Positions 1-22,760 of a stretch of 22,928 nucleotides of DNA are shown piece after piece. The notes under the pieces were generated by a model that did no database searches, had not been told where the DNA came from, and saw only the letters and a list, made by a program, of their open reading frames with translations. The stretch's first letter is position 1. Each line of letters begins with the position of its first letter. Made by a program: the position numbers and the translations under genes. The DNA is from Paraspadella gotoi (taxonomy: Eukaryota > Animalia > Chaetognatha): positions 1 to 22,928 of the forward strand of contig JBJCIZ010000121.1 in NCBI GenBank assembly GCA_051294375.1. The letters run 5' to 3'.

Positions 1-7
1 ACCTGAA

Positions 8-361: not shown

Positions 362-430
362 ATAAACTCACCTTTATAATTTCATCCCAAACTGATAATC
401 AGTATTAATTTACTTACCTTCGAATTCAGG

Positions 431-733
431 ATGTTGACTGAACTTGAATATTGCAAACGAGAAATGAGACTTTATGCTAGTTACCTGGTCCCAGAGTCCC
501 TGGAAGGAGCTCTAGAAGAATTGAGAAACAGCGAAAGAGAACTCGCTTGGGAGGATCAGGAAATCGAAAGAGGCATGAAAGGAGAAAAGACGAAGCGGGA
601 CATCGAATGCCATAAAGGCAGAGCAGAGTATTTACGAGATCGCATTGAGATGTTGAGAAAATGGCCAGATATTCTAAAGTTGGAAGGAAAAATATTCGCA
701 AACAGAGACTACAAGATACCTGAGTATTGTTAA
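431..733 (+). CDS. Accessory protein family beta (100 aa), copy A
   Basis: Counterpart of 19041-19343 (REMRLYA.YL.P.SLE.AL ... IEMLRKWPDIL..EGKIF ... IPEYC). Preceded by ACTTACCT (412) and TTCAG acceptor. Confidence 0.85.
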   Translation: MLTELEYCKREMRLYASYLVPESLEGALEELRNSERELAWEDQEIERGMKGEKTKRDIECHKGRAEYLRDRIEMLRKWPDILKLEGKIFANRDYKIPEYC

Positions 734-778
734 ATGTCGAAGTTTATTTACTCCTATTTGAATTTCAGTTTCATCAGC

Positions 779-1042
779 ATGTCTGAAGTGAGAAGAAACT
801 TCAAAAAATATGCCAGGGAGAACGCTATATTTTGGTTGCCAACCAACCTCGAAGATGCCCTGGACGAGATTGGCAAGAGAGAAAACAATCTAATACGGAG
901 GATCCAGGAATACGGAATCCACGGCGCAGACGAACGCGAGTTCAGGACGATCGCGCAGCTTACCAGATAGGCAGAAATCCTAGAGGAGCAAAGGGAAATA
1001 TTTTCATTGGAAACAAAGGCTGTAATGAATTTGCATCTCTAA
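779..1042 (+). pseudogene. Accessory protein family beta, copy A, with premature TAG
   Basis: MSEVRRNFKKYARENAIFWLPT matches 19397-19657. TAG at 968-970 replaces TGG (Trp), and homology continues in frame (AEILEEQREIFSLETK) to TAA at 1040-1042. Confidence 0.8.
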
Positions 1043-1115
1043 CGGACCTACCTTTCCTTTTCGAATTTCTTATCAATTTGTTGCATTTAATAATCAACTT
1101 ACCCTTTAGCTAAAG

Positions 1116-1448
1116 ATGAATATCGAGGCGTTAAACAAAATTTGCGACCAGCTAAACAAAGACTGGACGGAACTAAATCAAAAACCTTGGAGTCAAGAGA
1201 AGATCAAATTGATCATCGACCTAATGGACGGAGAAGATGCCCTACGGAATCAAAGAAAAGAAGAAATCAGGAAACAAGTCCCGCGAACTCTTCTGGAAAT
1301 CAAGAAAGAAGCGGAAAGATCAAGAAATCTCATGCGGATGATCGGAAGGGCGTTAGAGGTTAAGCCAGAAAATGCAAGCATCTATCTTCAATTTCTCAAA
1401 GCAGAAATGAGAAAAATGGAGAAACTGGAAGAGGAAAATGCATCTTAA
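1116..1448 (+). CDS. Accessory protein, tentatively family alpha (110 aa), copy A
   Basis: Counterpart of 19721-20056 (PWSQ, EEIRKQVPRT, AL.VKP.NA.IYLQF). Confidence 0.85.
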   Translation: MNIEALNKICDQLNKDWTELNQKPWSQEKIKLIIDLMDGEDALRNQRKEEIRKQVPRTLLEIKKEAERSRNLMRMIGRALEVKPENASIYLQFLKAEMRKMEKLEEENAS

Positions 1449-1539
1449 TAATTATGATCATTTCTTCATTATTATTGAACCTCACATTTTTTGTTGATAT
1501 TTACATTACCTGTTCCTTTATTAAGCTCATCGATAAGCA

Positions 1540-1884
1540 ATGGAGGAAAACCTTGACCATTGGATTCGTGGTCATAGTCAATTGACCTATATCATGAAGA
1601 CCCGAATGTTGCAAGGAATCACTTTAAGGATGCCGAACTCTGCTGAAGAATCCTTCGAGCAAATCGAAGCTAACCGGTCGGAGATGGCAAGAAGCAGAAT
1701 CGCCATAGGAAATAAACTTACCGAAAATCCACAGGCGGACGTCGAAAATGAAAAGAAAAGAATTCGATTCCTCAACGGCGAAAATACAAACCTGATCCTT
1801 TGGGCAAAGTTAAAGTTGAGGCGAGGAGATTTGTTCGCGGAAAAAACTTTAACTGAAATCGTTGTGAGATTTCACGAAAATTGA
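1540..1884 (+). CDS. Accessory protein family beta (114 aa), copy A
   Basis: Counterpart of 20171-20521 (DHWIRGH.QLTYIMK.RM, RMP.SAEESFEQ, ENTNL.LW.K). Confidence 0.85.
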   Translation: MEENLDHWIRGHSQLTYIMKTRMLQGITLRMPNSAEESFEQIEANRSEMARSRIAIGNKLTENPQADVENEKKRIRFLNGENTNLILWAKLKLRRGDLFAEKTLTEIVVRFHEN

Positions 1885-2136
1885 TATTTCATTGCATTGT
1901 TTGGCTCACAATTATTTGTCATTGGGTTTATTAATAAAATCATTGGTTGAATAGTTAATTGTCCATGTTCAAAACTTACCTTAACAGGGTATCTTTCCAA
2001 TAATCGCGACCGCGATAAAATTAAATTATTCCGAGACTATTTACGAATCTGAACTTTCAATACAAGTGTGACGGAGCAAAGTTCCAGGGGACTCGACGCA
2101 TCCGCATCTTTGAGTTCAAAAGACAACAAATTCAAG

Positions 2137-3507
2137 ATGCTCAACTCGCGCAACGTCATGTGGGCAACGACGAGCTTCTAAACCTTTCCCTCGACGTTCC
2201 CGGCGAAGACTACGCTTCCATCTTCTCGTCGACCTCTCTCTTCGAAGCTCAAAGTTGTGCGAATCCGGACGACGTAGCGGGTTTTAATCGGAGAGACCCG
2301 CTAAATCTCAACACCCCTCCAAATCCCGACCCCCTCGCTAACTCAAGTATCCCTCCAAGGAACAGCACGCCCATCCCTCCCCTTATAGAGTTTCCAGAGG
2401 TATACAAATTGGTACTTGATTAGGATCATTGTGTCAATGTTTATTTATACTCACCTTTGGTAACGTTTACAGTCAAATCTTCAGCGTCAAGCGCCGGATG
2501 ATGCGCTCAACGACTCGACATCAAGCGACGGGACGTTACCTTATGACGTCCCACCCACTCCGAAGACTCCACCCAACTTACCCACGACGTTATTCGACCC
2601 TCCAGCCCGCAAGTTGCCGCCGATCCCGATGCGAAACGGCGCGATCGACACGTCGCAGTGTAACAATAATTTAAGCCTCCTCGCTTACAACAACGACAAA
2701 ATTCCTTTCATCGTCGGGACGACCGACGAATGGAAGTTTCGCAACGATGTTCCACTTACCGGGAAAATAGGGAAGTGGATCAAAACATGCCGTCGAAACT
2801 GGCGAAGGGTAGCGAAGAAGCGAGGAATTGATTACGCCAAATTCGTTTTTGATAACTTTGGACTCATCGTCAACTCCAGTGACGATCACTTACCTTATAA
2901 TGGCGACAAGAATCCGGCGGTGACGAAAAGGAAAGTCGTCTTTAAGAAACCAGCACCGTCGGCGTCCTCATTGTCCATCGTCGAAACGGCGCAGCCCGAG
3001 GTGCCGCTTGCTTCTTCGTCCCTCATCGACGCCTCGACGGACGCGAAGAAAGCGCGGAGCGACGAAGTTCGTCGCCTCCTCGCGGAAAAGGAAACGCTCA
3101 AACTCGAACGCGACAAATTCAAAGCCCGCGCAGCGAAGCTGGAAGAAGAGCTGGCTCAAGAGAAGAAGCTTCGAGAAAAGGATCGCGATCGATTTGAAGA
3201 CAAGATCCAGAAGATAAGGGAAGACTCCGACAAGCGTATTGATCGGCTGACGGAGACGCATCTCCATGAGATAAAGAGCTGGCGGGAAGCCCTCTGCACT
3301 CCGCGTCATTCTTCGAAGCCTCACCCGACTCAAGACAATAAAGAAAAGCAACGTGAGTCTCCAAAGATGAGTGTGCATAGCGAGCCGTTTAAAGTCGCGA
3401 ACACTCGTCCCCACCTACCTTCATTTGATCCCCCTCCCCATCTCCAGCACTTGACAAAAGCCCCTCGTCAGTCCCCACCTCCTCATAAAAAATACAAAAG
3501 GCATTAA
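2137..3507 (+). pseudogene. Two-exon Pro-rich/basic/coiled-coil protein, copy A (exon 1 2137-2399, intron 2400-2472, exon 2 2473-3507), with an apparent 1-nt deletion near 2164
   Basis: ATG CTC AAC TCG CGC matches MLNSR of 20832. The GAG|GTATAC...TTTACAG phase-0 intron joins the 2160 and 2614 ORFs in frame. Near the start, ATG TGG GC AAC GAC is one base short relative to ATG TGG AGT AAT GAC in copy B. Confidence 0.75.
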
Positions 3508-4062
3508 CTATACTCGCCTTGTATATATCTACACTTACCTTTATTCAACTCCCATCTCTATTTCCAACTTCTGACGAATTTCCCCGTCGATTCTCATTTC
3601 ATTGTCAAAACCCAAGAAATAATTAATTACTCACCTTTATATTTGCATTCTATGAATTTATATTTATTATACCGTCAGTCTGATCTTGTATCATAAACAA
3701 TCAAATTTATTCGACTGGCATTTAATACGAATATCTGTTACTTTCACGCAATATTACTCACTTACCTATTACAGTTCTTATTAAAGTTCACTCACCTATC
3801 GTCCAGAATTGTAATGGATTCATTCAATATTTATCATTTAAATTATGTTTACTGCCTCATACTTACCATTCCGTTGGAAATTCTTTAATATTAATTATGT
3901 ACGTATAATATAATAACAATGATGAAATGATGACCTTACCTGTTCCCTTCGCTAAAATAAAAAAGAATTGGACAACGTAATAAGTGTATAATTATAATTT
4001 CAAAAAAAGAAAGGATAGTCGAGAAAAAGCTGTTAGACATTTCGAATTAGTTTACCCCTCAC

Positions 4063-4075
4063 AAAGGGGGGAGAA
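4063..4075 (+). promoter_or_regulatory. Polypurine tract (PPT) of copy A
   Basis: AAAGGGGGGAGAA immediately followed by TG; conserved at 22752-22760. Confidence 0.75.
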
Positions 4076-5100
4076 TGAGATCCCTTTTTTGGAGAAAAAC
4101 TAATCAATCTTGAGTAAACAAGTCTTTTCAAGTCACATAATTTGTGCGGAGATAAACATGATTCGATCTGCAACCGCCAAGACGAGTTTCCATGGCAACC
4201 GGGCTAGTTAAAGGTTCCTGATTCAGCAGTGGAAAGGTTGACGGTGGGAGTGAACCAGTACAAAGACCGCTGACGAATCACCGACGGATCTGCAGATGGG
4301 ATCGCCGACGGGCTCGCAGATGGGATCACCGACGGATCGCAGATGGGACCGCAGATGGGATCGCGGACGGGCTCGCAGATGGAAGTATCGACGATGGTTG
4401 GGAATTTGCAGCCACGAAAGGGGGGAGTCAATGCAGCATCGCCGTATCGGGGAATGCAGCCTTTTGGACGGGGGGAGGAAAAAGGAGAAACGATAAACTT
4501 ACCTTCAAGATGACGCAGTTTGAAATGATTTAGATGTATCACTATGTCTGCGCCTTTCTTTAATTGGCAACCTTGACATACGAGTATTTACAATGTTCCC
4601 AAGGTGGGAGTGTAACAATGGGCGCTAACATAGTGGTACGAGTGGTGAATGAGATGGAACCGATGATCATCTGTTTCCAAATCTTCCCTTACTTTCGCCC
4701 CCTACCGTTCTTGGTTCCAGCTCATTCTCCAATGGAAGGCTGAATCGTAAACATCGAAAATAATAATTTTCTACTATTTTACAAAAATGTAAATATTTAA
4801 TTAAATATTATTATTATCTAATTATTATAACTTAAGAATTAATTAATAAATTAATTCTTCCTTCCATTCTAGGTTTGAACATTCATTCCTTGTTATTTTT
4901 GGAATTCGCGAAAATGAACTCGTCTTCTAAAATAACTGGATAGTTCTACATTAAGTGAATTATATTTAGGTATTATTAGTTTAGACTAGTTAATTTTACA
5001 TTCGAAACATTTTTTCGTAAATTTTAGTTAATTAGTTAAAATTAATTTAAGGATTAAATTTAGGATTTTTATAATTTATAATGTAAAACTAACAAAAGGT
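4076..5100 (+). repeat. LTR between copy A and the gag-pol unit (start supported, end approximate; may include leader)
   Basis: Begins TGAGATCCCTTT after the PPT; 4076-4248 is homologous but diverged relative to 22761-22928. The 3' CA end and PBS were not identified. Confidence 0.55.
4277..4382 (+). repeat. About 24-bp tandem repeat in the LTR (about 4.5 units)
   Basis: Units ATCACCGACGGATCTGCAGATGGG / ATCGCCGACGGGCTCGCAGATGGG / ATCACCGACGGATCGCAGATGGG / ACCGCAGATGGG / ATCGCGGACGGGCTCGCAGATGG. Confidence 0.9.
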
Positions 5101-5385
5101 AAACTTTCTTCGATAGTGGCTCTGCCACGAAATATCGGAGGAAGTACAAAGGAACCGCGGCGCGGAATTTAACCCGTCGCGGGCAAACTTCGCCAGTTGG
5201 GGACCTTTACTCACGGACGAAGTAGTCAGGGAAGAAACTGAGCGTACAAAAATCTGAATTTTCCCCCTTTCAGATTAAAAAACCCTCGGTAAAAAAAATT
5301 ACGGAAATCGAAAATATTTAAGCTAAGCTAATTCCTTCGCGGCGCTTCGCTTCGCTTCCAACGGATTTTCCCAAGGTTAGAGACT

Positions 5386-7179
5386 ATGGATAGTTTCACT
5401 GAAGATAGGGAGAATATCTCTGAGAGGGAATTTAGACATTTTTTGAGTGAATTTAGACAAGTCTTAGACAAATTTAGTTCGAATTACCAAGTATATTTAT
5501 CTAGTCAAACCTCAGCGAACTTACGCGAAACGCTAAAAACGCGTGAAAACCTCGTTGATCTCGTTCGGGATCTGTCGGGCGGGCTCCAAAACCGTCCAGA
5601 CTTAAAAACGGGGCGCGCGGAAAGTCTTTTGCGTGAGGCTGAGGACGTATTATTACGTTGTCCAAATATTGATATTTCTGGGGAGGGTGACCCCGGGCCC
5701 GATGAAACGAGTGTCTGCGATAAACGAGTTGGACCGCTTGACGTTGCTTCTGATTTCGTGCCGGTTCCCGTAACCGACCAGGTCCCCGTAACTAATTCGA
5801 TTCACGTTGCTGACCCCGTTCCTGTAACTAGTTCAACCCCCGCAATTTGTTCGGTTCCCGTAACTAATCCCGTTCCGGTGAGCGTGCACGCCGTCGCGTT
5901 AGTAGATGAAAATAATTCTATCACTCCTCTCGTCCGCCCCGAACCCAATCCATTCCCTCCCCCTGCCCGTGTATCCAGATGGGTCGAGGAGACAGCCGCG
6001 CGTCACAGTAGAGCCACGTCCGCCGACTCTTCAGAAAACCCACGAGCTGAAGACGATCGCCGATCAGGAACGACGTCCTCCGAATCTGGCGCCTCCAAAA
6101 CGTCGCGAGAAGCGCAGCGGGAGAAACTGATCAAGAAAGGTAAGGTCGAGGACCGCCTGCGTAACTTCCGTCGGAAGCTCGAACGTATGGAGCACGAGCA
6201 AAGTCGAAAATTGATTGAACTAAACGAGGCTCGTGATGAAATGGAAAGGATGGAAAGGGAAGCGGAAATAGAGAAAATAGATATTGAAACGCAATATGAA
6301 GAAAACGTTGAAATTCTAGAATTAAACCTCTCTCTAATTAGGAACGACGCGGAACCCAGGAGACGCGAAAGGGTCATACAAACAACGAGGGGACCCGTTT
6401 CCATGGCGACGCCTTCACTTCCCGTCAGGCCGGCTGACCCAAGTCGAATAAAGAATCGACACAAGGAGAATCAGTCACAACCCGTTGCCATGGTCACGAC
6501 GACGCGGCCTAGCCCGGAATCGGCGGAAAACTACCCCTTGAAGAATCGACGCGAGGCCGTTACTACGGTTACGGCGTCGTCCAACGCGCCCCGAATCGCG
6601 ACCAGGGATCCAGCTTGTGCGAATGTCGTCGCGTCGGAGACGCCGGCGTCAAAAACGCCGGGCCCAGCGGTCCTCCAAAGTGTCGGGCAGTCACAGCAGG
6701 AGCCGTTTATTCAAAATTCCAACGTTATGCCTGTAATTTATGATGTCGATCCGCGTATTGCCGTGCCCAGTTCCTCTACCGTTTTGCGAGAATTACAAAT
6801 TGAGAATCGTGTGTCAAACAGTCATTTAAATGAAAATTTCGTAGTGCAAACTAGCGCCCCTATAAATCCGGCAGCTACTACCCCGTTAACGTCTGTTACG
6901 AATTCTCCGGCGTTTGCAATTCCTGCCGCGTCAATTCAACCGGTTGTTGCTCCCTCTGTACCTTGTTTTAAGCAGCAGGAAAATATTCTGTCAGCGATTC
7001 AAACGGCTATTGCACAAGCCATTGCGCCTTTATTTACGGCTCAAAATGTTACGTCGCCGATCGTAGTAGCCCCGACAACGTCGTCGTCGTTGGCGTCCCC
7101 GTCACCGGTTCCCTCTGTTCCATCTCCGACGACGCCGGTTACGATTTCAACACCAACTTCAGCGTCTCCGCCCGTTTGA
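5386..7179 (+). CDS. gag: ORF1 / N-terminal part of Gag (helical N-terminus, PVPV repeats, E/R-rich coiled coil, long Ser/Thr/Pro-rich tail)
   Basis: 597-aa ATG ORF, first after the LTR and directly upstream of the gag core. The coiled-coil plus low-complexity layout resembles BEL/Pao Gag N-termini, but no diagnostic motif is visible. Confidence 0.65.
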   Translation: MDSFTEDRENISEREFRHFLSEFRQVLDKFSSNYQVYLSSQTSANLRETLKTRENLVDLVRDLSGGLQNRPDLKTGRAESLLREAEDVLLRCPNIDISGEGDPGPDETSVCDKRVGPLDVASDFVPVPVTDQVPVTNSIHVADPVPVTSSTPAICSVPVTNPVPVSVHAVALVDENNSITPLVRPEPNPFPPPARVSRWVEETAARHSRATSADSSENPRAEDDRRSGTTSSESGASKTSREAQREKLIKKGKVEDRLRNFRRKLERMEHEQSRKLIELNEARDEMERMEREAEIEKIDIETQYEENVEILELNLSLIRNDAEPRRRERVIQTTRGPVSMATPSLPVRPADPSRIKNRHKENQSQPVAMVTTTRPSPESAENYPLKNRREAVTTVTASSNAPRIATRDPACANVVASETPASKTPGPAVLQSVGQSQQEPFIQNSNVMPVIYDVDPRIAVPSSSTVLRELQIENRVSNSHLNENFVVQTSAPINPAATTPLTSVTNSPAFAIPAASIQPVVAPSVPCFKQQENILSAIQTAIAQAIAPLFTAQNVTSPIVVAPTTSSSLASPSPVPSVPSPTTPVTISTPTSASPPV

Positions 7180-7363
7180 ACTTCGAAACGGGTGGACTGA
7201 CGACTCGAAAACTTGGTGGGCTCTTCGACACCTGACCATCCTCCCCACACCGAGCGTCGAATCAGCTGGAAATCAGGGTTTTGATAGAAAACAAATAAAA
7301 CCAAAACAAACCGTATTAATAATGATTATACTCTCAAGTGATCGATGAGAATCCTTGTTCTGA

Positions 7364-8533
7364 CAATACACATGCGCGTCGGCTCCGAATCGCAGCAAAT
7401 CGCCCGAAGAATGGTCATTGGCACAATTATGTGCCATCCAACTTCAGCAACAGGCCTTTTCTTTGATGAGACAGAAGAGACCGAAACTCAAATTTTCTGG
7501 ACGGGACCGTCGTGTCGATTTCGACAATCAGCTTGCTCTCTTTAACACTCTTTATAGTATCCCAGGAATAACCAATGAGATGCTGGTAGGAGAACTACGG
7601 GAGTACTTCGCAGGTGATGCTCTCATAATCATCCAACAGTATGAATTGGGGAGTGATTATGCTAGGTCGCTAAAAAAGATTAAAAAGGCGCTAAAGGTTC
7701 AATTTGGTAGGAAAGCTTATACAGCGAGACACCTATTAGACAATTTATTAAAAGGTGCGAAAATTAATAGCCGAGATTCGGCGGGTTTAAAAACGTTTAT
7801 TTTAGAATTAGAAAAAATCTATCTGCGAGCGAAGGAGACAAATAGAGAAAAGACGTTCGCAACCCAAGAGATTTACACTGAGATTTTGTCGAAAAAGGCC
7901 CCACATTTGGGAAATGCATGGGCTAAAAGAGCCATAAAAAAGAAAATGGAATGGTTAGAGAGAGAAACTGATGATGAAGACGATGAATGTGACCTTGACC
8001 CTACCTTTGAAACGTTTATCAAATTTCTCAAGTATACGGCCGAAATATCTGAAATGGGTTCCATTTACTCAGGATTCGGCGCTCCGAGCGAAGGCAAAAC
8101 GCCAAACGCGGGACCAACGGCGACGTCAACCCCAAAGCCGCATCGAAAATCATTCCAAGTTCGATTTGCAGCTGTCGCGGCAAAACCAACGAGATCCGGG
8201 CAGATGTCAAAAAGCCAGAGCAACTCGTCCATGAACACTACGCCGAAATTTCCCCATCCGAACGCCAACCCGACGACGCATGCCCCAAGAACCCCGTCGA
8301 CGACCATATGCTACATGTGCAGTGCGAACCACCGGCTGGAGGCTTGTAGGAAATATATCAATCTCGGAATCGAAAAAAGGTGGGATTTTATCAAAAAAAA
8401 CAGTCTATGCCATGTTTGCCTAAGGCGTGGCCATGTTACAAAGGACTGTAAGAGCCTATTAGGTTGCCGAAAGTGCGCCGGTAGGCATCATGTCTCTGTC
8501 CACCCAGAGACGCCGGCGGCGAACTCATCTTGA
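7364..8533 (+). CDS. gag: Gag core with three zinc knuckles (open frame; start codon not defined)
   Basis: Frame open from 7364. KLKFSG...F capsid-like start; CYMCSANHRLEAC, CHVCLRRGHVTKDC, CRKCAGRHHVSVH match the CX2CX3HX4C / CX2CX4HX4C / CX2CX3HX4H triple typical of BEL/Pao. Confidence 0.92.
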   Translation, partial: QYTCASAPNRSKSPEEWSLAQLCAIQLQQQAFSLMRQKRPKLKFSGRDRRVDFDNQLALFNTLYSIPGITNEMLVGELREYFAGDALIIIQQYELGSDYARSLKKIKKALKVQFGRKAYTARHLLDNLLKGAKINSRDSAGLKTFILELEKIYLRAKETNREKTFATQEIYTEILSKKAPHLGNAWAKRAIKKKMEWLERETDDEDDECDLDPTFETFIKFLKYTAEISEMGSIYSGFGAPSEGKTPNAGPTATSTPKPHRKSFQVRFAAVAAKPTRSGQMSKSQSNSSMNTTPKFPHPNANPTTHAPRTPSTTICYMCSANHRLEACRKYINLGIEKRWDFIKKNSLCHVCLRRGHVTKDCKSLLGCRKCAGRHHVSVHPETPAANSS

Positions 8534-8623
8534 CTTGCAGCCGCGTACGCCGTCACAGGGACATTCCGTCCCATCGTTCCCGTTATTATCGCAAACGGAA
8601 ACAAAACGGTGACGACGTACGCG
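8531..8623 (+). promoter_or_regulatory. Candidate stop-codon readthrough signal (UGA-C, 8-nt spacer, long stem)
   Basis: TGA 8531-8533; CGCGTACGCCGTCAC (8542-8556) pairs 14/15 with GTGACGACGTACGCG (8609-8623), enclosing two small hairpins. Confidence 0.65.
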
Positions 8624-12727: not shown

Positions 12728-13258
12728 AAAACATTGAATTTATAAGAATTTGAAGTAAATTTTTTCTTGCTTCAACTACTTATCGTGCAAAAAATTTAAA
12801 AAATTGTACCTGGTTTATTATTGATCGTCAACTACTATGTTTCTAACCGAACGAGTACGTAATCATTTATTAGATAACTTGCCCGTTGTTTGGGAAATAC
12901 TTACCTTTGAAATTCAAAACCGCTGGCTGAAACAAATAATTAGTTAATCCTTGAATTAATGATGAGTACACATATTTAGTTCGAATGGCCAATTTATTTA
13001 CTTGGACGCCGCGTTTAAAATTTGTCTCGCAATCAAGTACAAGAGCATTTGTTGTCCAACAAATCCTATGAGCAACAGACGAACACAAAGCCGATTAGTT
13101 GATTAAGTAATTAGTTATTGCTGAGCTAGATTCGCAGATTAGCAAAAAACAAAGATTAGTAAGAATCTGATACTTATCTGTTTACTTACCTGAAACCGAA
13201 TTATTCAATAACACTTATTTTTCTTACCCAGTATTACCTGTTTGAAGCACATTTCAAA

Positions 13259-13798
13259 ATGGAACCGGCGAACACGATCACAATTGAAGATGAAACTCTG
13301 AGTCAGAATGAGTCATTACCTGCTTCCTTGGGGACAAAGTCGACGCCGCCAGCCTCTCCAGTATTTTCATCGCAGCCAGAATCCGAGGCCGCACCGCCAT
13401 CAAGCTCCGCGTCAATGTCAGAGTTCAAAGACGAGGACATCATCGAAGTCTTGGAAATCTCGAAATGGGCTCCACCATCATCCCCGTCTTCATCCGAGGA
13501 CGAAAAGATCGTTCTAACGAAATCAACGAGTTCGGAATGCCTCGTCGAACTGCGAGAAAAGTGGGAAAAAGAAAGAAAGCACGAATTCCTCCGTCAGCAA
13601 CGAAAAAGGAAAGAAGCGAGGGAGCGCGTACGAATTTGGGAGAAAGAAGTAAAGCGCCTACGAGAAGACCTACAATGCGAAAGAGAGCGAAAAGTGAAGG
13701 AAAAACTGCGTGAGGAAATACGAGGAATCAAAAAGGAAAAGAGGAATCGTGCTCTCCTCGCTAAGATCTATGAAATGGAGAACTCGGAAGAGATTTGA
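13259..13798 (+). CDS. Accessory protein (179 aa): Ser/Pro/acidic N-half, K/R/E coiled-coil C-half
   Basis: ATG ORF after an AT-rich spacer with ACTTACCTG (13184) and an AG acceptor; biased but protein-like composition. Confidence 0.7.
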   Translation: MEPANTITIEDETLSQNESLPASLGTKSTPPASPVFSSQPESEAAPPSSSASMSEFKDEDIIEVLEISKWAPPSSPSSSEDEKIVLTKSTSSECLVELREKWEKERKHEFLRQQRKRKEARERVRIWEKEVKRLREDLQCERERKVKEKLREEIRGIKKEKRNRALLAKIYEMENSEEI

Positions 13799-13941
13799 AT
13801 TTGAATTCTGAATCATTTAACTACCTGTTCGGTTTTTGTTCAATCTTTCTTTTTCTTTTCAAGCAGTAAAATTTAGTCAAGCCATTCAGAGTCGCTTCCA
13901 AACTCGAGGCCGCCCGCTGGGTTTTCTCTGCTCAAGTCGGC

Positions 13942-14043
13942 AACGTCCATCTCGGCGACGGAATTTCTTTCGGCGCTTCCATTTCAGCCCGAAGCCGCGA
14001 ACGTCCATTCGGCGACGGAATTTCTTTCGGCACTTCCATTTCA
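13942..14043 (+). repeat. Direct repeat, 2 x 44-45 bp
   Basis: AACGTCCAT(C)TCGGCGACGGAATTTCTTTCGGCRCTTCCATTTCA at 13942-13986 and 14000-14043. Confidence 0.9.
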
Positions 14044-14179
14044 ATTGTCGCGATGTCGTCGGTAAGGAAATACAGAACAATCCATAAATCGATTCATTTG
14101 ATTAAACATCAGTATTTAAACTTAGGATGCAGCAGCCGAGCGCGCAAGGACGCTAGCAGCAGCGACCTGCAGAAGACCA

Positions 14180-14744
14180 ATGGCATGGGTTAGGCCATTC
14201 CATCCGGATGAGCCAAACCCTCCGGGGGTGGACGATCCGCCACTCAGGGCCAGGATTGAATCTCCAATTGCAGCGCCACTCAGGGCCAGATCTTCGGCTG
14301 CAGCGCCACTCAGGGCCAGGATTGAATCTCCAATTGCAGCGCCACCAGGGTCAGGATTCGATAGCCTGCAGCGCCACCCAGGGTCAGGATCGAACCTGCA
14401 GCGCCACTCGGCAGGACTCGAACCTCCAGCTGCAGCGCCATCAGGTCAGGATCGAACCTCCAGCTGCAGCGCCATCCAGGGTCAGGACGAACCTCCAGCT
14501 GCAGCCCATCCAGTGGTCAGGATCGAACCTCCAGCTGCAGCGCCCGCCAGGTCAGGATCGAACCTCCAGCTGCAGCGCCATCCAGGGTCAGGATCGAACC
14601 TCAGCTGCAGCGCCACCACAAATCTGGACTTATCCGCCAACTCCTGAACCGCAGTACTACAGAGGCTCGCCCGAACGATTCGGGTACCCACCTCTCCTAG
14701 ACGAAGACTCGGACTCGGACATCGTAAGGAAATTTATTATATGA
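14180..14744 (+). CDS. Possible repeat-containing Pro/Ala-rich protein; frame unstable across the minisatellite
   Basis: Two overlapping open frames (14180-14647, 14208-14744), RIEPPAAAP repeats, AATAAA at 14781. Openness may simply reflect the GC-rich repeat. Confidence 0.35.
14237..14616 (+). repeat. GC-rich minisatellite, about 30-36 bp unit, about 11 copies
   Basis: Consensus GCAGCGCCATCCAGGGTCAGGATCGAACCTCCAGCT with small indels between units. Confidence 0.92.
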
Positions 14745-15062
14745 AAAATGCTAGTAAACATTTATTATCAAAAAGATGCTAATAAACAAATGTTCCCTAG
14801 GAGATTACCTACGTCTCAAACCCACGGGCGAGAATCATAAGGCGCGAGGCGGACCACGACTCCGAAATCGCTAGGAACGTAACTTCAACGATCCGTGACT
14901 TGCGCGTATCGCTGTCGCGCGGACGGTCACCAGCTCGGGAGCAGGACGCCAGACCGCGCATCCCGGTCAAAGAGAGATTAGGCTGGCGCGTCAATTAAAA
15001 ACAGGAAAACAGCAATTAAACTGAAAACGTGGATAAGAAACTAATGAGTTAAACGACCAGTC

Positions 15063-15168
15063 GTTGTGATAACCAAATTATTTTTCTATGTATACAATCC
15101 GCAAACATAGTTGTGATAACCAAATTATTTTTCTATGTATACAATCCGCAAACATAGTTGTGATAACC
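15063..15168 (+). repeat. Perfect 47-bp tandem duplication plus 12-bp partial third unit
   Basis: GTTGTGATAACCAAATTATTTTTCTATGTATACAATCCGCAAACATA at 15063 and 15110; GTTGTGATAACC at 15157. Confidence 0.95.
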
Positions 15169-15281
15169 TGATTATTTGTTCATGTCCTTCTTCACATATT
15201 TGTTAGTTTACAGACTCCGTTGCGACAGCATAACAACAAGATTTAACATTTTGACCATTCAAAACGTATTGAGTCCGAGAA

Positions 15282-15593
15282 ATGGAGAAGAAAACTGTAT
15301 CAAATGCACAATCGGCGCCATCGACGCCGCCAACGCCACACCGGCCGGAACCCACGATGAACTTTATCTTCGCGGAAATACCTCTGCCTCGACGCCGCTT
15401 AGCCACGCCACTTTCGGGAACGAAGATTGGGTTCATTATCCCGTCTCACGTCATGTCGACGGACACATATTGCAAAACTCCATGAACAGTATTTCGCGCA
15501 ATATTCTCACGTTCATTGTTAGCAGCGCCTCGTTATTCGGAGGAAGAGGAAAGGAAACAAGAGAGATGGCTTAATGATTCAGCGGCGAATTAA
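15282..15593 (+). pseudogene. Possible small accessory gene with internal TGA at 15483-15485
   Basis: GC-richer island between AT-rich spacers. The ATG frame continues past the TGA as TVFRAIFSRSLLAAPRYSEEEERKQERWLNDSAAN to TAA at 15591-15593. No homolog in the window. Confidence 0.3.
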
Positions 15594-15843
15594 CTGCATT
15601 CCCTTCCTTTATTTATTGAATTATTTTCAGTATATTACTAGAACTCACCTTTAAAGTTGGCGACGCCGGAGACTTGAAATCTGAAAACCTAACACGAGGA
15701 GAAATCTAATCCGAAAACGAAGACCCAGCGCGAACTTCGGTGACGAAATTATGAGATTAATGAACAAATATTTAATGCAAACTTACCCGATGATAACAAA
15801 ATAATAATAAAATTTATCTACTTATAGAAGCCCTCGGCGAATC

Positions 15844-16083
15844 ATGTCATCCCGACGAGTTCTGTTCAATAGGATCATCGACCTCATTCCGATGGAACAT
15901 TTGGCCGAATTCTACGATAGATATAACCATTGGTATGATAAGACGATGCTTCGGATGGATCAAATAGAAGCTCTAAGTTTATCGGAGATAAACAAAGAAC
16001 TCATACTTCAGTTCGTCATGAAGAGAAGACGAGAAATGCTTCAAAAAATCATCATGGAACTGCGAGACAGAGCTGAGAAATAA
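15844..16083 (+). CDS. Accessory protein family gamma (79 aa)
   Basis: RIIDLIPMEHLAEF...HWYDKT resembles the next ORF; TTATAG acceptor upstream. Confidence 0.75.
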   Translation: MSSRRVLFNRIIDLIPMEHLAEFYDRYNHWYDKTMLRMDQIEALSLSEINKELILQFVMKRRREMLQKIIMELRDRAEK

Positions 16084-16166
16084 TTATGGAATCGATTAAT
16101 CAAAAAACTTACCTATTTGTTCGTGAATTATCCGATTAACTTACCTTTAGTTTATTATCAGCGAAA

Positions 16167-16463
16167 ATGCAAAGGGAACGCATCGAGATAGTTGGAGAAC
16201 TTCATATGCGGATTTTACTCGAACTCATCCCAATACGGTACAAAGAAGAATTTGTCATCGAATTTGGACGTTGGAAAGAGCGAACGGAAAAGAAACTGAA
16301 TGACGCAGCAGACGAACTGATGATACAGTATGCCCCAAGCCGCGTTCCCACTGCATCATTGGAGATATTGGATCACATCGAACGAGATGCTCTTGAAGAC
16401 ATTCACGCTATTATTCGGGATTTTACTTATCGTGCTCGCACACAAGACGAAGAACAAAGATGA
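16167..16463 (+). CDS. Accessory protein family gamma (98 aa)
   Basis: RILLELIPIRYKEEF...RWKERT; ACTTACCT at 16139 and ATCAG acceptor just before the ATG. Confidence 0.78.
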   Translation: MQRERIEIVGELHMRILLELIPIRYKEEFVIEFGRWKERTEKKLNDAADELMIQYAPSRVPTASLEILDHIERDALEDIHAIIRDFTYRARTQDEEQR

Positions 16464-16551
16464 ATATGCTGTCTCAATTGGCAAAAATTGATAATATCGC
16501 TGACAATTTCGTAGTAATTGATTAAAATTATGGTGTTCGTTATTTAGGAGA

Positions 16552-16758
16552 ATGACCTCATTTAATGGTTATACGTACGGTAGATTTGGCATTTGCTATA
16601 ATGAAACTCATGGAGTCCCGTATTCTGATCCTGAGAGAGCAAGTGCAAAACGATCCCTGATTTTGCTGAAAAGCAAAAAGATGATTATTCCGGTGTCCAC
16701 TCCGAATCAAAAGATAACAAACTCAATGCAAAAAGTGGAAAAAACCCCGGATGGATAG
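16552..16758 (+). CDS. Possible small accessory ORF (68 aa)
   Basis: Fills a slot in the array, with TTTAG just upstream of the ATG; no paralog seen. Confidence 0.4.
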   Translation: MTSFNGYTYGRFGICYNETHGVPYSDPERASAKRSLILLKSKKMIIPVSTPNQKITNSMQKVEKTPDG

Positions 16759-16840
16759 TTATTCATTATTGCAATTTATTACCTGTTCAAGTTATTATTT
16801 CGAGTATGTTTTTTTTTAAAAAAAAGATTCAGCCCACAGG

Positions 16841-17179
16841 ATGTCTGACAAAGTCGTTTGGCTATGGGACGAATGGAGAAGTCTGAAGCTTCAGAAAGAA
16901 AGTGAGAACAGAAACAGAAAGATTCTGGACGTAATCCTCCGAGAAGCCGAAGCGAATTTATCCTACAAACCTGACTGGGTAAAAGAGATCCTCCTCGGTG
17001 AGAACAAAGGTCCGAAAGACGAAGCCCAAAAGGCAATTCGTCTTGCAAAAGACTGGATAAAGACGGCGGAAATCCTGAAAAAAGAAAAACCCGGAAGAGA
17101 AAAAACTTTCGAAGCCATCATAAAGATGATGCAGGAGCAGATCGGGAAGCAGGAAGTCATTCTAAAAAACATTTCATGA
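16841..17179 (+). CDS. Accessory protein family alpha (112 aa)
   Basis: Shares EW..L, P[DE]W and K.EA...[IV]R.AK.W.KTA..L with 17768-18112. Confidence 0.82.
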   Translation: MSDKVVWLWDEWRSLKLQKESENRNRKILDVILREAEANLSYKPDWVKEILLGENKGPKDEAQKAIRLAKDWIKTAEILKKEKPGREKTFEAIIKMMQEQIGKQEVILKNIS

Positions 17180-17277
17180 ATAAATAAATCTATATGAACT
17201 AATGCAAGAGAATACTGAAAGTGCAGATTGAGTTGTTTTAATTTTGTCGTTATGTACTCGCAGCGTTAACAGATACG

Positions 17278-17661
17278 ATGCAAAGCGGATCTTCACCGAT
17301 TTCAATCTACTCCAGAGAACATCTTGAGCTCTGCGTTTTTAAGCGAAGCAAGACGGACGAACTGGAAGAACGTTTACCAGGCTGCGTCGAAAAGTGCATT
17401 GAGTTAGCGCAAAGTTATTCCACAAAAATCGAAAAGTTGCGCAAGATCATCGCCAAGAAAAAGGCAAAAAACCCGGCAACAAATGTGAAAGAATTCACCG
17501 AAAAAATCAAAAAGATGGAAGAAGAGTTCCCGACCATAGAACGATGGAAGGAAATATACCTGAGCAGAGGCTGCATTTTTAGTCGTGAGAGTCTGGAATC
17601 GGTCAAGGATAAACTTTCCCCGAGAGAAACGGTCGAGGTCGTGGGATTTTCAGTGATGTGA
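17278..17661 (+). CDS. Accessory protein family beta (127 aa)
   Basis: LPGCVEKCIEL ... IERWKEIYLSRGCIFSRESL, clearly similar to 18184-18504. Confidence 0.82.
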   Translation: MQSGSSPISIYSREHLELCVFKRSKTDELEERLPGCVEKCIELAQSYSTKIEKLRKIIAKKKAKNPATNVKEFTEKIKKMEEEFPTIERWKEIYLSRGCIFSRESLESVKDKLSPRETVEVVGFSVM

Positions 17662-17767
17662 AATCAGAAAAGATTTAAATGAACTTATGAATTATTAATT
17701 CATTGTCACGAAATATATTCATTTAATAGGATATTCATATTTACAGCTAATACTTACCCGCTTCAAA

Positions 17768-18112
17768 ATGTCCGATCCAGTAGGCGGTGCTCAATACTTA
17801 CAGGAATGGAAGTATCTTTACGACAACGAAGGGAAAATGAAGGACAAATATTTCGGAAGGAATTTGAACGTAAAGGAGCAAGAGGCGAGGATCAAGCGGC
17901 ATCCGGAATGGTTCAGGAATGGACCTGAAGACTACAAGATAAAGCTAAAAGGAGAAGCGGAGGAAAGTGTCCGCAGCGCGAAAAGCTGGAGAAAAACCGC
18001 TGTGATGCTCAGGTTTCATCAGAAGGAAAAGACCGAAATTTATGATGAAATCTATAAACTGATCAATGACTACATTGAAGAGAAAGAAAGGGAAATTCGA
18101 ATCTTATCGTGA
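17768..18112 (+). CDS. Accessory protein family alpha (114 aa)
   Basis: Paralog of 16841-17179; EIYDEI is also shared with 18612-18965. Confidence 0.82.
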   Translation: MSDPVGGAQYLQEWKYLYDNEGKMKDKYFGRNLNVKEQEARIKRHPEWFRNGPEDYKIKLKGEAEESVRSAKSWRKTAVMLRFHQKEKTEIYDEIYKLINDYIEEKEREIRILS

Positions 18113-18183
18113 AAATTGGTTCAATTTCCAAATTGAGAAATAGTTGTTTATCGTGTTTTTTTTTTAGTTACACCCAGAGCAAA

Positions 18184-18504
18184 ATGCAAGGTTATTGCGG
18201 ATACTCGGCTCATTGCTACAAGGATTTTCGAGAATTCGTTGTGAAACGAACCGAGGAATTCAATAATGAAGCTCCCGATTGCGTCGAAAGGTGCCTTGAT
18301 CTTATCAAAAGGTATTCAGGGGAACTGAACCAACTGCAAGAGGCCGTCAAGACATCAGGAGATGAAGCGAAAACCCATCATGAGCGAATCGAAACTCTAA
18401 AAGAAGAAATATCCTTCGTTGAGAAGTGGAAAAGAATCCGGCTCGCTCAAGGTCACATCTTCACGTATGAGAGTCTTGGAACATTAACCGAGGAACTGCC
18501 GTAA
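18184..18504 (+). CDS. Accessory protein family beta (106 aa)
   Basis: ATG at 18184 after a T-run/TAG acceptor; APDCVERCLDL ... VEKWKRIRLAQGHIFTYESL. Confidence 0.82.
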   Translation: MQGYCGYSAHCYKDFREFVVKRTEEFNNEAPDCVERCLDLIKRYSGELNQLQEAVKTSGDEAKTHHERIETLKEEISFVEKWKRIRLAQGHIFTYESLGTLTEELP

Positions 18505-18611
18505 AAAGGACAATTCAACTTACCTTCGAGTTTGATAAGATTATCTCCATGTTTAAATCCACTCTTATTCAAAGTTTAAACTGATTCATTTAGTCTAGCC
18601 ATTACCATACG

Positions 18612-18965
18612 ATGTCCCGAGTAAAGTCTATCGCCGAAATTCAAGAGGAAATCGCCCGCGATTGGGAAAAGGCGAGAAACATGGACGATTACTATCAAAG
18701 GAACTCTATTGTGGAAAGCATAGTATTTCGGGAACACGAAGTACGAATCCGAAAGAAAAAGGAGGAAAGAGAAGAAAGGATGAAAGGTAGCAAAGCCATC
18801 GAAGCATCCGAAATCTACAAGGATATCCAAGAGTTCGAAAGCCGCCGAAAACTAGCGATGGATGCAAAACGCAAAAGGCCAAATCTCGGAGAGATCTACG
18901 ACGAAATCGGAGATAGAGCAAAGAAACTACAAGCGGAGGCGAAAGAACGTTTAATGAAAATTTAA
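18612..18965 (+). CDS. Accessory protein, tentatively family alpha (117 aa), copy B
   Basis: Counterpart of 8-361. Confidence 0.87.
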   Translation: MSRVKSIAEIQEEIARDWEKARNMDDYYQRNSIVESIVFREHEVRIRKKKEEREERMKGSKAIEASEIYKDIQEFESRRKLAMDAKRKRPNLGEIYDEIGDRAKKLQAEAKERLMKI

Positions 18966-19040
18966 AAAAAAAAAAAAAACTTTTCTTTGATCGGCTCATT
19001 AAACCCCGGTGTCAATTTACTTACCTTATTCAGTTACGAA

Positions 19041-19343
19041 ATGTCGTTAAATTCCGAGTTCCGCATTCGAGAAATGCGACTCTACGCTGGTTATCTGATT
19101 CCAAAGTCGTTGGAGGAAGCTTTACAAAAATTAAGAGGTTACGAAAAAGAACTTATTCGAGAAGAGCAAGAGATCGAAAAAGGAAAGAAAGGAGAAAAGA
19201 CAAAACGAAGTCTCGAATGCCACGAAGGCAGGGCAAAGTACCTACAAGATCATATTGAGATGCTTAGGAAATGGCCGGATATTCTGGAGCAAGAGGGAAA
19301 GATATTCATGTCCAGAACCTATGAAATTCCTGAGTATTGTTAA
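19041..19343 (+). CDS. Accessory protein family beta (100 aa), copy B
   Basis: ATG at 19041 gives the same length as 431-733; ACTTACCT at 19019. Confidence 0.87.
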   Translation: MSLNSEFRIREMRLYAGYLIPKSLEEALQKLRGYEKELIREEQEIEKGKKGEKTKRSLECHEGRAKYLQDHIEMLRKWPDILEQEGKIFMSRTYEIPEYC

Positions 19344-19396
19344 ACATTTATATTACTTACCTTTAAAAAAATTTAGTTTTGTAATAGTACTACGAA

Positions 19397-19657
19397 ATGT
19401 CTGAAGTGAGAAGAAACTTCAAAAAGTATGCCAGAGAAAACGCGATATTCTGGCTGCCTACAAGTCTCGAAGATGCATTGGACGAGATACAAAAGAGGGA
19501 AGACAACCTGGTTCGGAGGATTCAAGAATATGGGATCCATGGCGCGGATGAGCGCGAATTCAAGACAATCGCACAGCTTACCAGATGGGCGAAAATCCTG
19601 GAAGAGCAAAGAGAAATCTTTTCGCTGGAAACCAAAACTATAATGAATCTTCATTAA
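19397..19657 (+). CDS. Accessory protein family beta (86 aa), copy B
   Basis: Intact counterpart of 779-1042; LPTSLEDAL ... RWAKILEEQREIFSLET. Confidence 0.87.
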   Translation: MSEVRRNFKKYARENAIFWLPTSLEDALDEIQKREDNLVRRIQEYGIHGADEREFKTIAQLTRWAKILEEQREIFSLETKTIMNLH

Positions 19658-19720
19658 CTTATTTTTTTTTAGTCGCCACAATATTGATTCAGATGAATAA
19701 TCAATTTATTTTAAGCTAAA

Positions 19721-20056
19721 ATGAATATCAAAGCTTTCAACGAAATCCGGAACCAAATAAACAGAGATTGGAATGACCTGGACCAAAGACCCTGGAGCCA
19801 GGGAAAGACAAAATCCATCATCAGCTTGATGATCAGAGAAGACGCATTATGGAATCTGAGAGAAGAGGAGATCAGAAAACAAGTCCCACGAACGATTGCG
19901 GAAGTTAGAAAAGCAACGGAGAGATCAAAAAATATTATATGGCTGATCGGAGAAGCATTAAAGGTCAAGCCTAAAAACGCAACCATCTACCTCCAATTCA
20001 TCAAGGCGGAAAAAGAAAAGATGGAGAAACTCGAAAAGGAAAATCACGTTCGATGA
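19721..20056 (+). CDS. Accessory protein, tentatively family alpha (111 aa), copy B
   Basis: Counterpart of 1116-1448. Confidence 0.85.
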   Translation: MNIKAFNEIRNQINRDWNDLDQRPWSQGKTKSIISLMIREDALWNLREEEIRKQVPRTIAEVRKATERSKNIIWLIGEALKVKPKNATIYLQFIKAEKEKMEKLEKENHVR

Positions 20057-20170
20057 ACTCATAATCGGTCTTCTTTATTTAGTTGCTCCTTATTGGCGTG
20101 AATTATCATTCATTAACTTTTCCTTTTCGTCATTATTAACAATTCTTGTTTGTTTATAAAGGCAGCGGAT

Positions 20171-20521
20171 ATGTCAAAAAGTCAGGACTCCGACCATTGG
20201 ATTCGCGGCCATTGTCAACTGACTTATATCATGAAGAATCGGATGAAGCAAGGGATACACCAAAGAATGCCGAGTTCCGCTGAGGAGTCATTTGAGCAGC
20301 TCAGAGAGAACTGTTCAGAGATGGCGAAAAACGAAATCGTCATGGAGATGAAGCTTGCCGAAAATGCCCAAGCGGACGTAGAAGTTGAAAAGAAAAGAAT
20401 TCAAATCCTCAACGACGAGAATACAAACCTTAGCCTCTGGGTAAAATTCAAGCTTCAACGGGAGGATTTATTTTCCGAAAGGACTTTAGACGACATCACA
20501 ACAGAATCCTGTGATAATTGA
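20171..20521 (+). CDS. Accessory protein family beta (116 aa), copy B
   Basis: Counterpart of 1540-1884; MPSSAEESF ... LWVKFKLQREDLFSERTL. Confidence 0.85.
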   Translation: MSKSQDSDHWIRGHCQLTYIMKNRMKQGIHQRMPSSAEESFEQLRENCSEMAKNEIVMEMKLAENAQADVEVEKKRIQILNDENTNLSLWVKFKLQREDLFSERTLDDITTESCDN

Positions 20522-20740
20522 CATTTATTTCATGTTGTCTGGTTTATTGATATAATTGTCATTGGCCCCTTTATTGAAATTGATTGGGTAATCGATTGTT
20601 TACTTACTTTAACAGGGCATCTTTCTGATAAAAAGTGTGATCACACTTTAAACTTGAACTCATTGAAATAAACTTGCGATATTTTAAGCGACGCGCGACC
20701 GGAGCGGGACTTCACTCAGTCCGAAAATAGCAAATTCAAG

Positions 20741-20831
20741 GTGAAATATATTCAATACTTACCTGAAAAAATAATATAATTCAAGATATATAACAATCAT
20801 TTAAATACTCACAAAAATTACCTGTTCCCAG
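20741..20831 (+). other. 91-nt 5'UTR spliceosomal intron, absent from copy A
   Basis: CAAATTCAAG|GTGAAA...TTCCCAG|ATGCTT in B versus contiguous CAAATTCAAG|ATGCTC at 2127-2142 in A. Confidence 0.8.
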
Positions 20832-22214
20832 ATGCTTAATTCCCGCGACACCATGTGGAGTAATGACGAACTCCTGAATCTCTCTCTCGACGTACCGGGA
20901 GAAGATTACGCTTCCATATTCCCGTCAACACCTCTTTTCGAAACGCAGAATTGCGCAAATCCGGACGACATAGCGGGCTTCAACGGAAAGGACCCGCTAA
21001 GTCTCAACACACCTCCAAATCCTAACTCCCTCTTCGATCAAAGTATCCCTCCCACAATTAGTACACCCATTTCATCTCTTATGGAACTTCCAGAGGTACT
21101 TAAATTTAAAATTGTTGGGTTATTATTGTTATGTGCTTATACTCACCTGCGATATTACTTATAGCCAACTCTTCTTCAACGTCAGCCATTGGACAACGCG
21201 TTGGAAGATTCTTCATCAAGCGACGGAACGTTGCCCTACGAGATACCACCCACGCCTAAAACCCCACCCAACTTATCTACGACGCTCTTTGATCCGCCAA
21301 CCCGAAGAATGCCGCCAATTCCGATGAAAAACGGGGCAATAGATACATCTCGGTGCAATAACAATCTCAGCCTCCTTGCATTCAACGACGAAAAGATTCC
21401 GTTCATCGTCGGGACGACCGACGAATGGAAGTTCAGGCCGGATGTCTCGCTTTCGGGCAAAATCGGAAAGTGGATCAAGACATGCCGACGCAATTGGCGG
21501 AAAGTTGCAAAGAAACGCGGCATCGATTACGTCAAGTTCGTCTTCGAGAATTTTGGTCTTCTCGTCAATCCCAGCGAGCCTAAAGTCGAAAGACTTCACC
21601 TACCTTCAAATGGCGTTCAAAGGGCGACGATAGCCAAAAGAAACGTCGTCATCAGAAAACCGGCGCCATCAGCTTCATCATCGTCCATCGTCGACTCGGT
21701 GACGCTCGGGGCGCCGTTGGCATCGTCGTCATTTAACGACATATCGGCGGAGTCAAAGAGACCGCGAAGCGATGAAGTTCGTCGTCTACTCGCCGAAAAA
21801 GAGACCTTAAAGTTAGAACGCGACAAATTCAAGGATCGCGCGGCAAAATTGGAGGAAGAACTCGCTCAGGAAAGGAAGTTACGTGAAAAGGATCGCGACC
21901 GCTTTGAGGAGAAAATCAACAAGATAAGAGAAGACTCCGATAAACGTATCGATCGCTTAACAGAGACCCACCTTCACGAGATCAAGAGCTGGCGAGAGGC
22001 CCTTTGCGTTCCCCAACCGTCAAGTTCCCACTTACCTCAAAAAAGTAAAGAGAAAAGTCGTGAACTTCCCAAAATGCGTGTACATAGTGAACCGTTCAAA
22101 ATCGCAGACACTCGTCCCCACTTACCTGTTTTTGATCCCCCACCTCATTTGCAACATCTGACGAAACCCCCACGTCAATCCCCACCCCCTCGTAAAATAC
22201 AAAAAAAGTATTAA
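20832..22214 (+). CDS. Two-exon 437-aa Pro-rich/basic/coiled-coil protein (exon 1 20832-21095, intron 21096-21164, exon 2 21165-22214)
   Basis: The GAG|GTACTT...TTATAG phase-0 intron joins two ORFs in frame, at the same position as in copy A. Exons are conserved while the intron has diverged. Basic WIKTCRRNWRKVAKKRG segment, long coiled coil, basic C-terminus. Confidence 0.85.
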
Positions 22215-22751
22215 AAAAATAGTTACTTACTCTGTACATGTTTATCTTTGAAACCGTCAGGCTGATTTGTATTATAAACAATCAAATTTAATTAACTGAC
22301 GGCTAAAGTCTTACCAACTTTACATTATAGAACATTATCATTTACTTTCCTTTCGTTGAACAACTATTGATGATACTTAATGCTTCTATATAAATAGGAT
22401 TATTTTATTTTATTGATACCTGCTTCCTCATACAAGCAAAATTATTCATGGAATTGATATTCACTTACCTCCTCGTAGAGTTATCTGTTCATTTAACTCC
22501 TCGTGGAAATATAAATAGTCACTTACCTTTTCGCGTATATAATTAGTCATCTAATTAATACTTACCTACCTTTCGTACGTACAATTACTTATCCGATCGA
22601 TATGAAGCAATATGCATAATATAAATGAGAATTTGCTCTCCTGTTCCCCTCTTCTAACAATAAAATTGGACAACGTAATAAAGTAGAATTTAATTTCAAA
22701 TAAGAGATAGTTGAGAAAGGACAAGGTCAAATTTAATTACCCCTCACAAAT

Positions 22752-22760
22752 GGGGGAGAA
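22752..22760 (+). promoter_or_regulatory. Polypurine tract (PPT) of copy B
   Basis: GGGGGAGAA followed by TGAGATCCCTTT, as at 4067-4087. Confidence 0.75.

Follow-up and report, generated by a model that had tools for sequence, protein, structure and literature searches.

What is the function of a short motif that recurs, always on the same strand, between the small genes of a chaetognath contig? The 22,928 nucleotides (nt) of contig JBJCIZ010000121.1 from Paraspadella gotoi (assembly GCA_051294375.1), analysed here over their full length and called the window, are identified by their sequence as a BEL/Pao long terminal repeat (LTR) retrotransposon, in front of which lies the accessory block belonging to a sister subfamily. 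For the octamer ACTYACCT, which marks the spacers between the small open reading frames (ORFs), an earlier note had proposed that each small ORF is released from one long transcript by spliced leader (SL) trans-splicing or alternative acceptor use, with donor sites on an antisense transcript as the alternative. We could show that the motif mirrors a splice donor and that this mirror is real, strongly selected and strand-specific. Concerning its function, we give an even chance to the reading that ACTYACCT is an array of predicted U1-binding donor sites on antisense RNA rather than a signal of the sense polycistron. It is the alternative in the note which fits composition and distribution best.

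The octamer is found 26 times on the plus strand and never on the minus strand, whereas 100 dinucleotide shuffles of the window gave 0.69 ± 0.79 copies and at most 3, and the enrichment is thereby confirmed. All 22 exact positions listed previously are present, as are the near matches at 1097, 1504/1505, 15781 and 17752, and four exact copies have to be added, one of them in pol (10366) and three in accessory coding sequence (2888, 22030, 22120). In our own annotation, which comprises 27 non-coding segments with 4,447 nt in all, 21 exact copies are non-coding (0.2 expected), three lie in accessory coding sequence, one in pol and one in the LTR. The motif had not been noticed in gag-pol; the copy in pol has to be added there, but it corresponds to chance level (1 against 0.17 expected, P 0.16). 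The statement that most spacers carry the motif is too broad for the exact copies, which occupy 13 of the 27 segments, and applies to a relaxed list of 39 sites, which occupy 18. As this list was chosen with a U1-based score that treats T>C as a match, it is excluded from the argument on composition given below. In a ranking of spacer hexamers, CTTACC and ACTTAC take the first two places, and the AT-rich leader (4700–5385) contains no exact motif.

The gene-free 3′ tails harbor 7 exact copies and 13 of the 39 relaxed sites. In addition, synonymous codons in the accessory ORFs favour the motif: ACYYACCT is present six times where 0.72 are expected (gag-pol, 1 against 0.18), and His-Leu-Pro is coded CAC-YTA-CCT in five of five cases. 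The density in the gene-free tails together with this codon preference suggests that the role of the motif hinges on density and not on one acceptor. Furthermore, the array is limited to the part of the element downstream of pol, and the motif is retained in two subfamilies whose synonymous sites are nearly saturated.

ACTYACCT is the reverse complement of AG/GTRAGT, so that the minus strand reads as a consensus splice donor. Of 36 sites anchored on the intron side (CTYAC), 28 have C and 25 have T at the bases that come next; in 36 sites anchored on the exon side (ACCT), ACTY reappears ahead of the anchor, and T (16) or G (12) comes after it. Both anchors together give (A/C)AG/GTRAGT on the minus strand with the information confined to 9 nt (−3 to +6), as is the case for a donor consensus. 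The single-base variants in the spacers point in the same direction. Changes of T>C at positions 3, 4, and 8 number 11 where 0.19 are expected (one overlaps a neighbouring copy), whereas C>T or A>G number 4 where 1.1 are expected. The former is the class which U1 tolerates by G-U wobble on antisense RNA and therefore favours antisense donors; the latter is the class tolerated when sense RNA pairs with one donor. At 13184 and 20757 the minus strand reads TTTCAG/GTAAGT and TTTTTTCAG/GTAAGT, respectively, with an acceptor directly before the donor as in recursive splice sites. Two further candidates were rejected: a Zelda-type DNA site (CAGGTA) because of the 26:0 strand bias, most sites reading AAGGTRAGT, and cis-occlusion of the element's own donors, as the sense donors are not GTRAGT. 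A de novo motif search by expectation maximization converged on GC-rich composition and was discarded.

How could an array of antisense donors serve the element? Antisense RNA started from the 3′ LTR or by host read-through would run into dense donors in the 3′ tail and, further on, in most of the spacers. The donors might splice to pyrimidine-rich minus-strand acceptors, which are created by the A-rich ORFs (the two accessory blocks contain 15 strong acceptors on the minus and 4 on the plus strand), or they might retain the antisense RNA in the nucleus, where it would be degraded. What the element would likely gain, we infer, is that silencing of the accessory genes through double-stranded RNA (dsRNA) or PIWI-interacting RNAs (piRNAs) has a smaller amount of intact antisense RNA to work with. 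The copy in the intron may double as a sense branch point. The HeT-A/TART elements of Drosophila, retrotransposons in tandem arrays as well, are described as having conserved donors on the antisense strand of the 3′ non-coding region, and for HeT-A splicing is described only in antisense RNAs of the 3′ untranslated region (UTR) (PMC3235214, PMC2615633). HeT-A is, however, a non-LTR element with few donors and demonstrated junctions, whereas the element described here is an LTR element with about 40 predicted sites across a multi-gene cassette. Moreover, a retained 5′ splice-site motif is reported to promote nuclear retention and decay (PMC4380460), and a review states that piRNAs arise preferentially from unspliced transcripts (PMC11599104).

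Several observations weigh against an antisense array. The spacers could simply be the regions that are free of coding constraint. A sub-form of the motif, TACCTGTTC, recurs at 1504, 3934, 13819, 16777, and 20816 (CTGTTC, 7 against 1.2 expected), which U1 pairing does not explain; this sub-form, TTACCTGTTC, goes past the U1 footprint, and one specific partner would fit it better. Upstream of 12 of the 18 ORF starts a relaxed site lies within 100 nt, in 11 cases with an AG between site and ATG. A YAG follows the A of the motif at 17–23 nt in 5 of the 21 spacer copies and at 8–14 nt in 6 (13% of random A in either case), i.e. at about twice the background. The note had placed many copies 10–20 nt before a YAG that directly precedes an ATG, and the arrangement is looser than that. 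Finally, the orthologous sites 1974/20602 and 2449/21141 keep their place beside a sense acceptor.

These points lead to the sense strand, where splicing itself is supported by the sequence. Within 25 nt of the ATG, a YAG with at least five T in the preceding 12 bases is found for 13 of 18 ATGs compared to 12.7% of other spacer positions, and with at least six T for 9 of 18 compared to 6.1%. Short spacers and an unpaired 3′ acceptor before the downstream ATGs, as in SL operons, are thus present, and GTRAGT is nearly absent from the plus strand (1 against 5.0 expected). Taken together, the acceptors, the predicted introns (Table 1) and the scarcity of GTRAGT make it likely that splicing to the T-rich AG ahead of each ATG frees the small genes from the long transcript, via SL trans-splicing or a common leader. 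In this respect the earlier proposal stands, whereas its second part, a role of the motif in the release, is weakly supported. The distance from the motif to the sense AG is not fixed, and 7 of the 21 spacer copies have no YAG or AAG within 30 nt.

Concerning the 91-nt intron in the 5′ UTR, none of the 126 possible 91-nt deletions scores better than removal of 20741–20831 when both copies are aligned (score 76, against 21 unspliced). Its exact absence from copy A suggests reverse transcription of spliced element RNA, although an intron gain in the other copy would be the alternative. The acceptor region of ORF 19397 is also retained: two contigs of related copies from run X1 have AAATTTCAG about 20 nt before the ATG in differing flanks, and copies A and B nearly keep AAATTTCAG as well. 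Run X1 consists of contigs only and its being RNA is a guess; both of its contigs that run upstream of ORF 19397 have spacer-like sequence there. In total 28 X1 contigs could be fitted to 14650–22928, 24 of them less than 90% alike, and the joints listed (15 of 19) are gaps between similar ORF pieces, none of them GT-AG. One X1 contig of 4,230 nt preserves the gene order of 15374–19592.

Given such acceptors, the motif might act on the sense RNA as a mimic of U1. In this role reversal, known in general from the nematode Ur element, the motif of the polycistron would pair with the donor of the SL RNA, or with those of various SL or host RNAs, thereby bringing it to a nearby acceptor so that each small gene receives a capped leader. 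We regard this as possible and clearly less probable than the antisense donors. The motif matches the 5′ end of U1, at 20755–20765 in 11 of 11 positions, and the sites within 100 nt of 12 ATGs, the acceptors ahead of 13 ATGs, the scarcity of GTRAGT on the sense strand and the CTGTTC extension all suit it. The motif resembles nematode Ur (TAYYTT) in its U1-like core, in the short spacers and in the T-rich acceptors before downstream ATGs, and nematode Ur motifs are described about 50 nt before trans-splice sites (PMC7668243). On the contrary, a single target is inconsistent with position 4, which is T in 15 and C in 6 cases, and in these AT-rich spacers the C at positions 2, 6, and 7 is hardly ever replaced by T. 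The element's own leader has no GTRAGT donor to pair with. Copies also occur in the tails and within ORFs, and the one at 17752 lies past its acceptor, sitting between acceptor and ATG with no AG after it.

The analogy to Ur fails on composition. TACCTT is enriched (11 against 1.9 expected), whereas TATTTT, TACTTT, and TATCTT are not, which is the reverse of the usage described for the Ur candidates of T. spiralis, with 66–80% TATTTT and 0.6–2.5% TACCTT (PMC7668243). The motif has a strict CC instead of the wobble T, wobble forms are not dominant, and the distance to the ATG varies from 16 to 94 nt without a fixed position. An adjacent stem–loop is not consistently predicted (mean z −0.6 and −0.4); Lasda in 2010 is said to have placed the Ur element beside a short stem–loop. 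We consider it improbable that dozens of U1-mimic sites in the element RNA pair with the donors of host SL RNAs or of ordinary host pre-mRNAs in a splicing-based capture of caps in trans for about 15 accessory genes, outside the nematodes. A full-text literature search returned no paper that combines ACTTACCT with trans-splicing and spliced leader.

An unlikely third explanation places the benefit with the host. Antisense U1 sites might shield read-through transcripts of the host or of a cluster from premature polyadenylation at minus-strand AATAAA and so lower the cost of insertions, or the motif might bind an RNA-binding protein. Minus-strand AATAAA is indeed elevated in the spacers (23 against 10.4 expected; it is the top AT-only hexamer, z 2.8), and the leader without exact motif suits this explanation too, LTR and leader holding one TTTATT. 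Nevertheless, AATAAA and motif are not correlated per spacer (rho −0.11, p 0.6), and TTTATT may reflect U-rich outrons of the sense RNA.

Least probable, and to be expected in few cases at best, is that CTYAC provides the branch adenosine for each sense acceptor. As had been observed in the note, both copies of the coding intron have the A of CTCAC at a distance of 19 nt from the AG, and conservation of this intron is limited to the motif; as we read the sequence, CTCAC also occurs near −20 in the 5′ UTR intron and CTAAT near −19 in the intron 14724–14800. Outside the introns this role breaks down, as it fits the intron copy alone: besides the YAG spacing given above, an A-to-AG distance of 15–30 nt is found in 5 of 21 copies compared to a background of 28%, and both introns of the gene 14054–14999 lack the motif. 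CTRAC and TACTRAC are better partners of U2. Neither is enriched (6 against 6.1 expected, and 0), and no single-base variant has A or G at position 4.

The assignment of the element to BEL/Pao is based on the ORF 8774–12727, in which Pfam finds RVT_1, Pao Peptidase_A17, Integrase_H2C2, rve, and DUF5641 in that order. Like other Belpaoviridae it thus combines gag-pol with a reverse transcriptase, this peptidase, an integrase and DUF5641, and a polypurine tract (PPT) is followed by an LTR that starts with TG; unlike them, it carries about 15–16 small paralogous genes after pol. The pol frame is open from 8534, straight after the gag stop. Cys/His knuckles can be seen in the translation of gag, which has no Pfam match. 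A PPT and then TGAGATCCC are found at 4076 as well as at 22761; the 3′ LTR is cut by the end of the window, and no primer-binding site could be matched to a tRNA. Rfam and tRNA searches of the window had no matches. The nearest relatives of pol share 35–43% identity, and pol is placed in a clade of 42 rows with a Shimodaira–Hasegawa-like approximate likelihood ratio test support of 100. BEL/Pao elements are almost confined to animals, and no related loci were found among the viral or prokaryote contigs searched.

Table 1 Features of the window
Feature	Position	Strand	Remarks
Accessory block A (sister subfamily, 3′ part only)	1–3507	+	ORFs 8, 431, 779, 1116, 1540; two-exon gene 2137–3507
Predicted GT-AG coding intron, 73 nt	2400–2472	+	motif A at −19; in-frame join
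Gene-free 3′ tail A	3508–4075	+	4 exact and 7 relaxed sites; ends in PPT; longest ATG ORF 24 amino acids
LTR and leader	4076–5385	+	starts TGAGATCCC after PPT; single motif at 4497
gag with C-terminal Cys/His knuckles	5386–8533	+	insertion of ∼195 nt at about 7177–7370
pol	8534–12727	+	in frame after gag TGA; one chance-level motif at 10366
Accessory block B, about 15–16 small genes	12728–22214	+	many mutual paralogues
Block B genes, first half	13259, 14054–14999, 15182, 15844, 16167, 16552, 16841, 17278	+	two predicted introns in 14054–14999
Block B genes, second half	17768, 18184, 18612, 19041, 19397, 19721, 20171, 20832–22214	+	
Predicted GT-AG 5′ UTR intron, 91 nt	20741–20831	+	holds ATACTTACCTG, ATACTCAC, TTACCTG; absent exactly from copy A (2136/2137)
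Predicted GT-AG coding intron, 69 nt	21096–21164	+	orthologue of 2400–2472; motif A at −19; in-frame join
Gene-free 3′ tail B	22215–22760	+	3 exact and 6 relaxed sites, then PPT; longest ATG ORF 32 amino acids
3′ LTR, beginning only	22761–22928	+	similar to LTR at 4076, clearly diverged
Predicted donor-consensus (AG/GTRAGT) sites, block A, exact	366, 412, 1974, 2449, 2888, 3533, 3629, 3760, 3790	−	
Predicted donor-consensus sites, block A, variants	1046, 1097, 1504, 3413, 3512, 3861, 3934	−	range of all block A sites 366–3941
Predicted donor-consensus sites, block B, exact, first part	12899, 13184, 15643, 16107, 16139, 18518, 19019, 19355	−	
Predicted donor-consensus sites, block B, exact, remainder	20757, 21141, 22030, 22120, 22463, 22521, 22560	−	
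Predicted donor-consensus sites, block B, variants	13222, 13232, 13819, 15781, 16777, 17752, 20602, 20816, 21598, 22564	−	range of all block B sites 12899–22571

The gag TGA is followed by CT and the open pol frame (8531–8536), and TGA-CT is also found before the protease region of two distant relatives (L001, L002); this context suggests that pol is expressed by stop read-through. The insertion in gag reads TG...CA like a small solo LTR, and a target-site duplication was looked for and not found. The LTR in front of gag and the 3′ LTR have clearly diverged, and the former lies behind the accessory block of the other subfamily; the arrangement is probably tandem or recombinant with one LTR shared. 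Tandem repeats are found at 4265–4382 (59-nt units, in the LTR), at 14226–14642 (units of about 35 nt, in a proline/alanine-rich accessory gene) and at 15063–15185 (three 47-nt units, in a spacer).

The two subfamilies can be compared over bases 1–4260 and 18605–22928. Six ORF pairs between the copies have protein identities of 63–91%, a proportion of synonymous differences (pS) of 0.67–0.81 and a ratio of nonsynonymous to synonymous rates (dN/dS) of at most 0.13. These values argue that the accessory genes are real and, in addition, that the age of the subfamilies would have scrambled most of the spacer sequence that is not under selection. The tails A and B are barely alignable to each other. 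Block A is damaged by a premature stop in ORF 779 and by a frameshift in the first exon of the gene 2137–3507. Most of the small accessory proteins belong to a few paralogue families of helical orphans with 20–32% identity between paralogues (431, 1540, 17278, 18184, 19041, 19397, and 20171; 16841/17768; 15844/16167). No convincing Pfam family was found for the accessory proteins (three matches are below the cutoff), a homologue search with 2 of the about 16 proteins had no matches, and the Atlas leads for two of them are under 0.9. An env gene was not detected in the element.

Among the matches listed, 78 metagenome loci show no motif array (12 copies on the plus and 10 on the minus strand in 505 kb); as few of these loci reach far past pol, this count is no test of the relatives. 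One distant BEL/Pao locus (L025) has six copies of the octamer on the opposite strand, i.e. as donors on the sense strand. A scan of viral contigs for the three-copy pattern yielded 41 loci, mostly short local clusters without similarity to the window.

Tor of Oikopleura is another LTR element with a downstream gene, whose expression is attributed to splicing from the 5′ LTR or to an internal promoter (PMC4402516). Tor has one env gene, whereas the element described here has many small orphan genes and a BEL/Pao pol. Neither the motif array nor an operon-like cassette in a BEL/Pao element is described in the titles and opening lines of abstracts listed by the literature searches, which covered few subscription papers. 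The element is a variant on known kinds, with a mechanism that is probably either the antisense donors or the sense mimic.

For a BEL/Pao element, an operon-like cassette with about 15 orphan genes is unusual in itself, and within the literature searched either of the two leading readings would be a novelty among LTR retrotransposons. If the motif acts as a U1 mimic on the sense strand, the role reversal of the nematode Ur element would occur elsewhere too, in the service of a mobile element. With antisense donors, on the other hand, the element would have built splice signals into its non-coding strand, even within synonymous codons, and splicing that diverts RNA from piRNA or dsRNA silencing would become testable as a counter-defence of transposons.

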